Positions 6,138 through 49,322 of a DNA stretch of 64,000 nucleotides are shown here, in pieces. The notes beneath the pieces are model-generated. The model had not been told where the DNA came from. It saw only the letters and a program-made list of their open reading frames with translations, and searched no databases. The stretch spans positions 66,092,001 through 66,156,000 of the forward strand of contig NC_043004.1 of the NCBI RefSeq assembly GCF_006345805.1. The letters run 5' to 3'. The position numbers and the translations under genes are program-made. The DNA comes from Octopus sinensis (Eukaryota). The stretch's first letter is position 1; each line of letters starts with the position of its first letter.

Positions 6138-6510
6138 TATATATATGTAAGAGATGGAGGTGGAAATAGCACAGAAGTACGTCTAAGGCTTTTCAATTGA
6201 AGAATAACTTGAATAAAAGTTATATAAAGAAGATATTACCGGTTTCACTGTATCTCATCTTAACAAATATCAGTAAACATTTATAAAAGTCTAATGTAAA
6301 AACAGTTTATCTTCTGCCCCGGGGTCAAGAGCATGCCTGAAGACTCCCATACAAAAGGCAAACTGTTTTTACTTCAAATTTTTATAATTTTTTTTTATTA
6401 ATATTTGATAAGATGAGATACATTGAAACCGGTAATATCTTCTTTATATAATATATCTCGTAGACTTAGCTATGTGCTATTTCCACCTCCATGTTATGTA
6501 TATATATATA
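6138..6510. mobile_element. Foldback element (inverted pLTR-like arms) flanked by (TA)n, carrying hammerhead motifs
   Basis: Perfect 20-bp inverted repeat 6154-6173/6473-6492 and imperfect ~100-bp inverted repeat 6220-6316/6351-6451. Confidence 0.85.
6401..6438 (+). ncRNA. Minimal type I hammerhead ribozyme, U3-A8 core variant
   Basis: ATAT-TTGATAA-GATG-agata-CATT-GAAAC-cg-GTA-ATAT. Stem I ATAT/ATAT, stem II 4 bp, palindromic stem III ACCGGT, GUA triplet. Confidence 0.6.
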
Positions 6511-6669
6511 TATATATATATATGGGTGTGTATATAAATATAAATATATAAATATATATATGTGTGTGTGTCTATGCATATATATATATATATAATAACT
6601 ATACATATATATATGTAAATATATATATATAAATATATATGCGTGTGTGTGTGTGTGTGTGTGTGTGTG

Positions 6670-6830
6670 CTTGAGTCTGTTTTTGTCCATACATCCGTGC
6701 TCGACAACCTGTGTTGGAGGGTTTACGCCCTGAAAACATCAGCGTTTCGGCAGAGGAAACCGATAGAATAAGTACCAGGCTTTTAAAAATCACAGATGTA
6801 TTAGATACATTTGTCAAACAAAAGGGATAA
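6670..6830 (+). mobile_element. 3' half of SINE family B, degenerate
   Basis: gacaacc..gtgtt..gtttacg..ttcggc...accgatagaataagtac matches 44470-44560. Confidence 0.65.
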
Positions 6831-7065
6831 AGGACATATAATTAGATTGTTTCATGTTGAACGTGATTATCTGTTAAGTAGAGTTTCTGGGATGTAATTA
6901 GTGAGTGGTTACCCCTTTAATATACTAATAAATTAATATTCTTCTATGCAAATGTTTGCATTTAGTCACACAATTCAGGCGGATTTGTTAACGGCATCAG
7001 ATATTTACAATTGCCATATCAGTAGAAATACTACATTCAGTAAAGTAATAATATTAAAATGATAT

Positions 7066-8017
7066 GGCGGGGAACTGGCCGAAACGTTAGCACGCCGGGC
7101 GAAATGCTCAGCGGTATTTCGTCTGCCGCTACGTTCTGAGTTCAAATTTCGCCGAGGTCGACTTTGCCTTTCATCCTTTCGGGATCGATTAAATAAGTAC
7201 CAGTTGCGCACTGTGGTCGATATAATCGACTTAATCCGTTTGCCAGTCCTTGTTTGTCCCCTCTATGTTTAGCCCCTTGTGGGTAGTAAAGAAATAGGTA
7301 TTTAGTCTGCCGCTACGTTCTGAGATCAAATTCCGCAGAGGTCGACTTTGCCTTTCATCCTTTCGGGGTCGATAAATTAAGTACAGTTACTCACTGGGGT
7401 CGATATAATCGACTTAATACGTTTGTCTGTCCTTGTTTGCCCTCTCTGTGTTTAGCCTCTTGTCGGTAGTAAAGAAATGGGTATTTAGTCTGCCGCTACG
7501 TTCTGAGATCAAATTCCGCAGAGGTCGACTTTGCCTTTCATCCTTTTGGGGTCGATAAATTAAGTACAGTTACTCACTGGGGTTGATATTATCGACTTAA
7601 TACGTTTGTCTGTTCTTGTTTGTCCTCTCTGTGTTTAGCCCCTTGTGGGGAGTAAAGAAATAGGTATTTAGTCTGCCGCTACGTTCTGAGATCAAATTCC
7701 GCAGAGGTCGACTTTGCCTTTCATCCTTTCGGGGTCGATAAATTAAGTACAGTTACTCACTGGGGTCGATATAATCGACTTAATATGTTTGTCTGTCCTT
7801 GTTTGTCCTCTCTGTGTTTAGCCCCTTGTCGGTAGTAAAGAAATGGGTATTTAGTCTGCCGTTACGTTCTCGGTTTAAATTCCACCGTGTTCGACTTTGC
7901 TTTTCTCCCTTTCGGGATCGATAAATTAACTACCAGTTACGCACTGGGGTCGATCTAATCGACTGGCCGCCTCCCACAAAATTTCGGGTGTTGTGCCTGG
8001 AGCAGAAAATAATATTA
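7066..8017 (+). mobile_element. SINE family A with four internal 183/184-bp tandem units plus a terminal unit
   Basis: Head ggcggggaactggccgaaacgttagcacgcc and B-box-like gagttcaaattc. Motif ggtattt(c/a)gtctgccg recurs at 7113, 7297, 7480, 7663, 7846. Central gactttgcctttcatcctttcggggtcgataaattaagtac resembles the Meta/MESC-type SINE domain (from memory). Confidence 0.9.
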
Positions 8018-8509
8018 GTAGTAATATTATTTATTCATGCCTTGCACTAAAGTAATATATTACAATGATAGCGCGGCTAAAATGAGAAGAGAACTAAATC
8101 TGTGCTTGTAGGAAAAAATGAACAGGCAGATGGAAGAGGTGATACTGGGGGGAAGGGTTTAGCGGTTTATTAATGAGGAAACCAAAGGCCAAGTGTGAAA
8201 GATGTTAGAATAGAGCAATGAAGAGAAAATTGGGAAACTCAAAAATGAAGAATGAAAAATGAAAAACGAAACGAGAAAAAATGTTAAAATACTATCTGAA
8301 AGAGAAAGAAAAGATTAAAACATTAGAAAATGTAATTAAAATGTATATGGAAATGAAAATAAAAAAGACGATGTGAAACAAAGGTATTAGTCTAAATATA
8401 TTTATATGAAAAGTGATCAATCAGGAGGTTGAGAAAACCCCGAAATATATGTTTTTTCGTATTTTCAAAAGTTTAGAAAGTTTAAAGGTTTAAAATGTAT
8501 GGAGATTAT

Positions 8510-8795
8510 TTAGAGATAGATAGGTAGAGAGATAGATAAATAGATAGACAGATGGCTAGCGAGAGAGATAAAGATGAATGGATAGATACATAGATAGACA
8601 TACACATAGATATATATATATATAGATAGATAGATAGATAGATAGATAGATAGATAGATAGATAGATAGATAGATAGATAGATAGATAGATAGATAGATA
8701 GATAGATAGAGGGGACCGACTTTTGGCGTGTGGTTTATGTGATACAGTCCCACATTTGTTTCGCTACTCATATATATATATGTGTGTATATATGA
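8510..8795. repeat. (GATA)n and (TA)n microsatellite
   Basis: Direct reading. Confidence 0.95.
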
Positions 8796-46852: not shown

Positions 46853-46998
46853 ATAGCTGTGTGGTAAGAAGCTTGGTTCTCAACCACATGGTTTCGGGTT
46901 CAGTCCCACTGTGTGGCGGCTTCTGCAAGAGTCTCCTACTATAGCCACGTGTCAGAAAGATCTGTAAATGGATTACGTTGACTGAAACTGAAAGTCGT
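46853..46998 (+). mobile_element. 5' half of SINE family B
   Basis: gctgtgtggtaagaagctt..aaccacatggtttcgggttcagtcccactg. Confidence 0.85.
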
Positions 46999-47825
46999 GT
47001 ATATATATATATATATATATACATATGATGATACCTTCATCTTGGCAGATGAACTCAGAAAGCACACCTCATCACACATTACAATCACTCCATTGGCGAG
47101 CTATTATCTGACTTTTCAGACCAGCTGCTGTTTGAACAAGTCTAAATCACAATGACTGATATTATTCCAGATTCTTCTATATCTTTGCTCCTTGGAACCT
47201 GATTAGCATGTCTTTTAATTCTAGATATTGTCTGACATGTTTTTTGACATATGACACAAGTCTTAAGGGGTGGTTGATGCCAACACTATTACCTAGCTAT
47301 ACATATATATATTATATATATATATATATATATATATATATATAATATATTATATATATATATATATATATATATAGACATGTCTCTGCGTGAGTGTATA
47401 TATATATATATGTGCGTGTGTTGTGTATGAGTGTGTGTATATGATTGTGTAAGTGTGTGAGTGTGTACGCTTGCCAACTGGGACAAAAGGGAAATGGCCA
47501 CCTGGCAATGAAAGATATGTATATCGTTCCTCGAATATGGTATAAATTCATCTGGAAAAGAACAGTGGGAAATTACTAAATTAAATCTGATCTGGAAAAA
47601 TGAAGAAACAATAATTTTATTCATAGTTTTTAGGGAATTATCAAAAATCATGGAGATCGATACTCCTGTATATACCACACATACAAAATGTAAGTAACGA
47701 ATTAGGAACACCAGGCACATCCATATATAGTATGTAGGTCATGCGCAGCACAGTAAATGTAAGAAAACCAAAACAGTCAATTGTGCAGTAATTTTACGAA
47801 AGAAACTCTAATATTAAATGGTAGA

Positions 47826-48118
47826 ATACTACTACTACTACAACTACTACAACTACTACTACTACTACTACTACTACTACTACTACTACTACTACTACTA
47901 CTACTACTAATGCTGCTACTACTACTACTACTACTACTACTACTAATAATAATAATAATAAGTGTAATAATAATAATAATAATTGTAATAATAATAATAG
48001 TAATAATAATAATAATAATAATAATAATAATAATAATAATAATAATAATAATAATAATAATAATAATAATAATAATAATAATAATAATAATAACAATAAT
48101 AATAATAGTAATAATAAT
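47826..48118. repeat. (CTA)n then (AAT)n microsatellite
   Basis: Direct reading. Confidence 0.95.
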
Positions 48119-48119
48119 G

Positions 48120-48614
48120 CCACCATGGCTTCTGATCTTAACTGATCTGAAGTGTTATCATGTACATTGTTTTGTCTTGGTATAAAAGATGGGCTACAGC
48201 AAATATTCTGCTCATAACACAGATTTGCTTGTCAGTTGTTTGACCATAACCAGTTGAGCATGTCCCTTAGTGGCTGATGATACGTGCTTCTCTGATCACG
48301 AGTAGATGTACTGGGGGAGCATCATAGGCATGTGTTGAGAGGGATTATTTGGGGTTTGAATAATTCACCTCTGGAAACTTGGCTGTTTCGTTCAATATCC
48401 TTAAACAACAATTATTCAAGAAATTTCTAACTGGGCCCCACCTGTAAGATCATGTGCTGTTTATCTTGATATGAGGACACCATGTCGCGCAGATATGGTT
48501 GTGATGTATGTGTCTAGTGTACGGGTAGTCGTGATGGGTATACTGGACTTCGTATATTTTACCCCGGTATCACTTTGATGGCATAAGCTGCTCTCTCACT
48601 CAATAATAATAATA
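48120..48614 (+). mobile_element. Interspersed repeat family E, ending in (AAT)n (probable non-autonomous retroelement)
   Basis: Inverted copy at 56940-57280 and fragment at 22612-22760; abuts (AAT)n on both sides. Confidence 0.8.
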
Positions 48615-48991
48615 AAAGACATATGCATACATTACGACACACGTGTTTAGTTGTTTGTGGTTGTTTATACACGTTTGTGAATGTGCAGATGTGTGTGTGT
48701 GTGTGTGTGATTTACTATGCTTGCAGTGAGAATAAGTGCTAGTGACAGAAAGCAATGGAATTGTGTATAAGGGTATGTATGTATTATATATATATATATA
48801 TATATATATATATATATAATATATATATATACATACATACTATACTACATATATATATATACATATATATACATATGTATGTATGTATGTATGTATGTAT
48901 GTAGTATATATATATATATATATATATAATATATATATATATATATATATATATATATATATGTATATATATTATATATATATTATATATA

Positions 48992-49322
48992 TAAAACATT
49001 ATTGGTGAATGAAGAAATGGAGCTGAACGCAGATGAACAGAAATGTTTTATTTCATTCTACACACGTGTTTCGAAAGGCACAAATTACCAAAATCCGATT
49101 GAATAATGGACCATATTGTGTCTTCTCTTCAGGAAGAAAAACAGAATGGCTCCATTTCTTCAATTCACCAATAATGTTTTAATTTCAATTATCCGCACCA
49201 ACGCACGGTTGCAACGCCATATGGTTACCTCCAACCGTGCTGTTACTGTGATTTTTGCTACTAAGGTATCGGTTAAACTTTTGATTAATCTACTACAAGA
49301 TATTCATCTTTCTATTTCACAT
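48992..49322 (-). mobile_element. Inverted-arm element in (TA)n carrying a hammerhead
   Basis: Inverted repeat 48992-49023/49149-49181 (one indel); (TA)n on both sides. Confidence 0.8.
49056..49135 (-). ncRNA. Type I hammerhead ribozyme with long stem-loop II
   Basis: Minus strand TTC-CTGAAGA-GAAGACACAAT...ATTTGTGCCTTTC-GAAACAC-gt-GTGTA-GAA. G10.1-C11.1 pair present; GUA triplet. Confidence 0.7.

Follow-up and report, generated by a model that had tools for sequence, protein, structure and literature searches.

What are the three short inserts that lie in a stretch of 64,000 nucleotides of the Octopus sinensis genome (RefSeq assembly GCF_006345805.1, contig NC_043004.1, positions 66,092,001 to 66,156,000; hereafter the window), each set in (TA)n repeats, built around two inverted copies of one segment and carrying a type I hammerhead ribozyme motif? 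The initial annotation, made from the letters alone, had taken them for several families of self-cleaving mini-elements of a Penelope-like or retrozyme type. Our analysis indicates that each insert is probably the stump of a single, heavily 5′-truncated insertion of an endonuclease-positive Penelope-like element (PLE), and that the three likely come from three different families. It is likely that the insertion pattern is one already described and that the inserts are new PLE stumps, not a new kind of element. Coordinates are positions in the window throughout, and the features of the three inserts are collected in Table 1.

The hammerhead descriptor scan covered both strands of the window and located type I layouts at cores 6405 (plus strand), 13140 (plus strand) and 49132 (minus strand). 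All three motifs contain the conserved core, three stems and an NUH cleavage triplet, which is GUA in each case, and their palindromic or near-palindromic stem III measures 6, 8 and 10 nt in inserts 1, 2 and 3, respectively. The chance level was estimated in two ways. A descriptor tuned after the hits were known gave three real matches versus none in 200 shuffles. The second control consisted of 1000 block-wise dinucleotide shuffles, with the microsatellites left in place, and three broader, untuned descriptors: the medium descriptor returned the three motifs as its only matches in the 64 kb (shuffle mean 0.18, with at least three matches in 2 of 1000 shuffles), the medium+ descriptor likewise returned three (mean 0.076, at least three in 0 of 1000), and the loose descriptor returned five (mean 0.79, with five matches in 2 of 1000). 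All three motifs lie within inverted-arm loci, and they are more frequent than chance predicts. The two extra loose matches, at 8413 and 21859, were rejected as hammerhead inserts, being without inverted arms and looking like chance. Rfam gave no hammerhead match in any insert up to an E-value of 10 and none among the 150 of 400 matches listed for the whole window, while its microRNA matches, far under the gathering scores, were dismissed as microsatellite or hairpin artefacts.

Regarding the arms, masked self-BLAST of the window revealed five local inverted loci, three of which are the inserts and the others a pair of short interspersed element (SINE)-like pieces and a mariner-like piece. The arms stand head to head in all three inserts, with lengths of about 160, 40 and 31 nt in inserts 1, 2 and 3, and the side on which a tail is found also varies; in inserts 2 and 3 an unduplicated extension (about 80 and 140 nt, respectively) separates one arm from its TA array. 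Neither the tandem-repeat listing nor self-BLAST contained a head-to-tail tandem unit at any insert. All four tail-less arm ends have a TA run (four units or more) at a distance of 1–5 nt; by comparison, only seven of the 58 ends of 29 dispersed-repeat segments elsewhere in the window come within 12 nt of TA (Fisher p = 0.0006), and the chance for a boundary placed at random to fall within 10 nt of TA is 1.6%. TA flanks alone are not diagnostic, because 2 of these 29 other segments have TA on both sides.

These results uphold much of the initial annotation, namely the GUA triplet with its tiny stem III and the mutual dissimilarity of the inserts, among which no similarity above shuffle level was found; two of the checks it had proposed, for an excess of motifs over shuffled sequence and for an enrichment of TA flanks, came out in its favour. 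The shared architecture that it had described holds for all three inserts with respect to the hammerhead, the inverted arms and TA on both sides, and needs qualification in two respects: the left TA run of insert 1 has only about five units, and one arm of inserts 2 and 3 is separated from TA by a tail. Of the three to four inserts it had counted in the 64 kb, three stand, as a relaxed scan of the window found no fourth hammerhead-bearing insert. Two candidates for this place were rejected: 24128–24366 is an inverted pair of SINE-like pieces related to a unit of 183–190 nt, and 42658–43207 is a mariner-like piece without a hammerhead and without TA arrays. The latter has inverted arms of 197 nt that are 86% identical (self-BLAST locus 42667–43198), and the piece between them looks like a mariner transposase remnant, with no match in a Pfam scan that covered the 150 longest of the 186 open frames in the window.

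The three inserts differ considerably in their details. In insert 1, the core of the intact motif (6405–6411) has the U3–A8 variant, its stem II of 4 bp is closed by a G·U pair, and its 6-nt stem III is palindromic. The motif is present on both strands; the minus-strand copy, with its core at 6266–6260 and GUA at 6239–6237, has A6 changed to U and on that account fails as a hammerhead core. The two arms agree at 115 of 132 gap-free columns. A further first core box, located 16 nt past the junction centre, where the left arm seems to carry a deletion, is a possible decayed upstream motif; it was not picked up by any hammerhead scan of the window. In insert 2, self-BLAST aligned the arms with 37 of 37 nt identical, the left arm extending to 12842. 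Its core (13140–13146) is standard, with a U·U beside a 4-bp stem II and a stem III of 3 bp with a 2-nt loop; decay as the origin of the U·U was rejected in view of the motif table of the Hydra clade of PLEs, where 14 of 25 families share this layout. The AT- and T-rich stretch upstream of the motif is likely the 3′ untranslated part of the element, and a by-eye comparison places a T-rich stretch at the matching position in Hydra-1_Crog. Within it lies a GC-rich hairpin (12973–12995) that has a second core box on the minus strand, lacks an intact first one and may be what is left of an antisense hammerhead motif. In insert 3, the core (49132–49126) is also standard, accompanied by a G–C-closed stem-loop II of 53 nt and a stem III of 4 bp with a 2-nt loop. 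The copy that bears this hammerhead begins 16 nt before the core and stops at TA without a tail (arm 49023–48994), the two arms are about 97% identical over 31–33 nt, and an open frame of 60 codons starting from ATG (49146–49325) spans the arm and the tail. The distance from the start of a copy to the first core box is 16 nt in insert 1 (decayed box) as well as in insert 3, and 297 nt in insert 2; two cases of a 16-nt start are an anecdote.

Table 1. Features of the three hammerhead-bearing inserts and their (TA)n borders.
Feature	Position in window	Strand	Basis or remark
Insert 1, left (TA)n, short	6137..6146		sequence; arm end 2 nt from run
Insert 1, inverted copy of element 3′ end with decayed hammerhead	6147..6308	-	arm alignment, sequence
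Insert 1, head-to-head junction palindrome, 8 nt	6317..6324		sequence
Insert 1, additional first core box of hammerhead type, no proper second box	6337..6365	+	sequence
Insert 1, direct copy of 3′ end (right arm)	6360..6494	+	self-BLAST, alignment
Insert 1, hammerhead motif	6400..6439	+	descriptor scans; predicted cut after 6434
Insert 1, right (TA)n array	6495..6640		tandem-repeat listing
Insert 2, left (AT)16	12770..12802		tandem-repeat listing
Insert 2, short inverted copy of 3′ end, tail-less	12803..12842	-	self-BLAST, alignment
Insert 2, AT/T-rich stretch upstream of hammerhead	12843..13135	+	sequence
Insert 2, hammerhead motif, Hydra-clade layout	13136..13178	+	descriptor scans; predicted cut after 13174
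Insert 2, segment duplicated as left arm	13223..13262	+	self-BLAST, alignment
Insert 2, unduplicated stretch on one side, about 80 nt, either tail or captured flanking DNA	13263..13343	+	sequence
Insert 2, right (TA)n array	13344..13426		tandem-repeat listing
Insert 3, left (TA)n array	48774..48993		tandem-repeat listing
Insert 3, hammerhead-bearing copy of 3′ end	48994..49148	-	sequence, self-BLAST, alignment
Insert 3, hammerhead motif	49056..49135	-	descriptor scans; predicted cut after 49059
Insert 3, short inverted partner arm	49149..49179	+	self-BLAST
Insert 3, unduplicated stretch on one side, about 140 nt, either tail or captured flanking DNA	49180..49320	+	sequence
Insert 3, right (TA)n array	49321..49448		tandem-repeat listing

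The link to PLEs and the targeting of TA, both put forward in the initial annotation, are supported by agreement with the published anatomy and hammerhead types of these elements. PLE insertions are described as strongly 5′-truncated, with an inverted truncated copy beside the 5′ end and a tail of 30–40 bp that is often present at one end only (PMC8557442), and the same anatomy has been reported together with head-to-head junction palindromes, which were read as self-priming (PMC3846280). Minimal hammerheads reside in the pseudo-long terminal repeats (pLTRs) of PLEs, most motifs being solitary remnants of truncated elements, and pairs on opposite strands 100–700 bp apart have been ascribed to truncated PLEs as well; the U3–A8 core variant was found via a Cercyon PLE and described in Schistosoma PLEs (PMC4209133). 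For an anole PLE studied in vitro, two internal start sites of reverse transcription give an optional tail, and the endonuclease cuts AT-rich DNA (PMC11167929). Drawing on such work, the GIY-YIG endonuclease of the element would nick (TA)n, and reverse transcription would start within the pLTR RNA at one of two sites, these alternative starts being the reason why one copy may be tailed and the other tail-less. Synthesis would be cut short once tens to a few hundred nucleotides had been copied, and a second, reversed copy would join the first head to head, primed either by fold-back or on the other strand. The hammerhead would be carried along because its distance from the 3′ end is 60–190 nt. 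Within the tandem RNA of the parent, the hammerhead would cleave as a dimer via stem III or with the protein of the element.

Several observations weigh against reading the inserts as PLE stumps. The tails of inserts 2 and 3 (80 and 140 nt) exceed the 30–40 nt given in the published text by a factor of two to four and might be host DNA; the frame across the tail of insert 3 had no match when searched with phmmer against 1.84 billion proteins, and no target-site duplication is readable within TA. Self-BLAST found no second copy of any insert in the window, and pattern scans of metagenome and viral contigs, collections not built for animal DNA, yielded no match. Six short insert motifs had no match in the Naiad and Hydra consensus supplement (PMC8557442), whose line breaks and truncated cells may conceal matches, and the 3′ end of Hydra-1_Obim differs by eye from all three inserts. 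No reverse transcriptase or GIY-YIG match appeared among the open frames scanned with Pfam, a scan insensitive enough to miss an evident long interspersed element (LINE) fragment; stumps are not expected to contain an open reading frame for these two domains. Finally, when dimers were forced, only insert 2 formed all three stems, at 6.7 kcal/mol above its best dimer fold, and inserts 1 and 3 favoured other pairings.

Other explanations have to account for the same features. The inserts could be non-autonomous mini-elements derived from PLEs, transcribed as complete inverted units, remobilised in trans by a PLE protein and forming families of fixed structure. The sufficiency of pLTR sequences alone for mobilisation in trans in Adineta (PMC3846280) speaks for this, and a copy that starts 16 nt before the core box in two of the three inserts could mark a defined RNA start. 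Nevertheless, arm length and tail side vary among the three as independent truncations would make them vary, and a second copy was not found in the window; since the arm lengths vary, one-off truncated insertions fit better than fixed units, and we regard the mini-elements as unlikely. A more specific proposal has several PLE-derived hairpin mini-retroelements inserting into (TA)n, each as an inverted unit of fixed structure whose RNA begins a short way upstream of the hammerhead; it seems to us quite improbable. If true, it would imply about one element per 20 kb and, in read-through transcripts, tens of thousands of long double-stranded RNA stems along with sites of conditional cleavage. It may also be asked whether the hammerheads are chance occurrences or passengers in DNA elements resembling miniature inverted-repeat transposable elements (MITEs), or in inverted duplications mediated by TA. 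Tc1/mariner MITEs also fit the description of TA-flanked inverted repeats, and loose descriptors do give false hammerheads in AT-rich sequence, as the shuffle mean of 0.79 per window illustrates. Against this stand the rarity of three or more matches in the shuffles under the medium and medium+ descriptors, the arms of inserts 2 and 3, which in each case reach the terminus on one side only, the absence of both hammerhead and TA arrays from the mariner-like piece, and the clade-specific layout of the motif in insert 2, all of which make this explanation very unlikely.

The retrozyme part of the initial annotation fares no better. According to this explanation, the inserts would be monomeric or decayed non-LTR retrozymes that replicate via circular RNA, with which they share their small size (330–540 nt), non-coding nature, low GC content, type I hammerhead and relation to PLEs (PMC7229834; bioRxiv 10.64898/2026.07.22.740005); monomers do occur and are derived from PLE pLTRs (bioRxiv 10.64898/2026.07.22.740005). 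Yet non-LTR retrozymes are defined in these sources by head-to-tail tandem units with canonical motifs, whereas the inserts are inverted and non-tandem, with no head-to-tail repeat of the hammerhead unit; their inverted arms and tails are marks of PLE insertion, and their stems I have 3–4 bp. We therefore consider a retrozyme origin scarcely credible. Truncated PLE insertions remain the explanation we prefer for all three inserts.

Self-cleavage of the motifs is a prediction, and whether they could act on host RNA was approached by folding. Folded as monomers, all four motifs gave a probability of at most 0.035 for the first stem I pair, and the monomer hammerhead fold is predicted for none of them; the self-duplex energies of stem III are -8.3, -2.9 and -11.7 kcal/mol for inserts 1, 2 and 3, respectively. 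In the predicted fold of the whole-insert RNA of insert 1 (-147.6 kcal/mol, z = -18.5, as an inverted repeat would give), the motif pairs with its own antisense copy, whichever strand is taken. Published PLE hammerheads point in a similar direction: the minimal Schistosoma motif showed no cutting as a monomer and weak cutting as a dimer (PMC4209133), and the anole PLE hammerhead required protein for cutting and was dispensable for insertion (PMC11167929). Because the motif of insert 1 would be buried, monomer folds are unfavoured and the published hammerheads needed a dimer or protein, cutting of host transcripts by the inserts appears unlikely, and the hammerhead in a solitary stump is probably silent. 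The initial annotation had suggested that the inserts could cut or fold any transcript read through them; its second half is retained for insert 1, whose read-through RNA, if transcribed, could plausibly form a long double-stranded RNA by the predicted hairpin. Nothing found here supports a regulatory effect on host RNA.

If the preferred reading is true, at least three PLE families have left stumps in this genome, at three per 64 kb, and these match no consensus checked and are missed by Rfam. Large collections of such stumps would capture PLE integration in the act, including the still puzzling inverted-copy step: within each family, the variation in junction centre, arm length and side of the tail would discriminate between fold-back priming and priming on both strands. 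They would also add two hammerhead variants, namely the U3–A8 core with a G·U pair and the stem-loop II of 53 nt.

The setting of the inserts is animal-type DNA with a GC content of 29–39% across the window in 2-kb steps, 127 tandem-repeat rows and numerous SINE-like pieces, the commonest SINE being presumably octopus-like. The unit of 183–190 nt occurs in tandem arrays at 7113–7964 (4.6 copies) and 41850–42467 (2.6 copies), and a SINE-like element of 290 nt is present in two copies that are 83% alike (11164–11455 and 52936–53218), the second with TA runs at both ends. Upstream of insert 2, another SINE-like piece (11840–12170) is nearly unique in the window. Of 24 sequencing runs listed for the stretch 11600–13343, which includes this piece, four (two studies, three organism labels) contained 74–81% of its words, and no RNA run was listed; in view of the SINE-like piece, these shares are not taken as evidence on the inserts. 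Among the open frames scanned, Pfam returned three sub-threshold matches, none to a retroelement family, and no host gene was identified. A broken LINE-type stretch from endonuclease to reverse transcriptase, judged by eye from its translation and with no Pfam match, is located at 32928–34059 on the minus strand, directly to the right of a gap of 100 N near 32319–32418. Two short frames, at 55493–55828 (minus strand, no Pfam match) and about 32418–32660 (plus strand), resemble the restriction-like endonuclease end of R4/Dong-type retrotransposons.

When compared to known systems, the inserts share with Penelope insertions a shorter head-to-head inverted copy, an AT-rich target and, in the extensions of inserts 2 and 3, what may be a tail on one copy (PMC3846280, PMC11167929), and insert 1 matches their junction palindrome (PMC3846280); unlike these insertions as described there, they consist of the pLTR stump only and have no readable target-site duplication. 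The minimal PLE hammerheads (PMC4209133) have in common with them a short stem I, a palindromic stem III, the U3–A8 core and a solitary or opposite-strand arrangement, while stem II of inserts 1 and 2 has 4 bp instead of the 7–8 bp reported and is not closed by G–C. Naiad PLEs share (TA)n targets, an inverted copy, possibly the tail, and remnants in cephalopods, and differ in lacking canonical hammerheads, the inserts having complete motifs (PMC8557442). One octopus genome was reported to contain 31 Penelope-like families with recent activity, hammerheads going unmentioned in the available text (PMC13282606); the repeat library of that study may already contain the insert sequences. No publication on these particular sequences appeared among those listed for octopus or cephalopod Penelope-like elements or hammerheads, or under broader subjects, in the openly available literature outside Repbase and Dfam.

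The closest match is provided by the Hydra-clade PLEs, which share (TA)n targets and a hammerhead about 60–190 nt from the 3′ end (PMC8557442). At the protein level, the clade is marked by RWK and DKT motifs, a CxCX5C linker and the lack of CCHH. One family of this clade comes from an octopus (Hydra-1_Obim; PMC8557442), and (TA)n was preferred in 26 of 27 families (PMC8557442 File S1), a preference that is not diagnostic of the clade because Neptune and Naiad share it. The distance from motif start to 3′ end, calculated from the supplement of PMC8557442, is 87–210 nt in 23 of 25 families, and the corresponding distance from core to arm end is 89, 122 and 138 nt in inserts 1, 2 and 3. The U·U layout, listed in 14 of 25 families (PMC8557442 File S2), is seen by eye in insert 2 beside a short stem II, as is the stem III of 3–4 bp with a small loop, and on these sequence features insert 2 most likely belongs to the Hydra clade. 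In hammerhead layout, insert 3 has only stem III in common with the clade and is compatible with it, its stem-loop II of 53 nt being unlike any of the 25 families listed. The U3–A8 core of insert 1 is likewise absent from that list, and this insert likely derives from another PLE clade; its inverted truncated copy and its motif on both strands nonetheless find a counterpart in Penelope-13_HM (PMC8557442).

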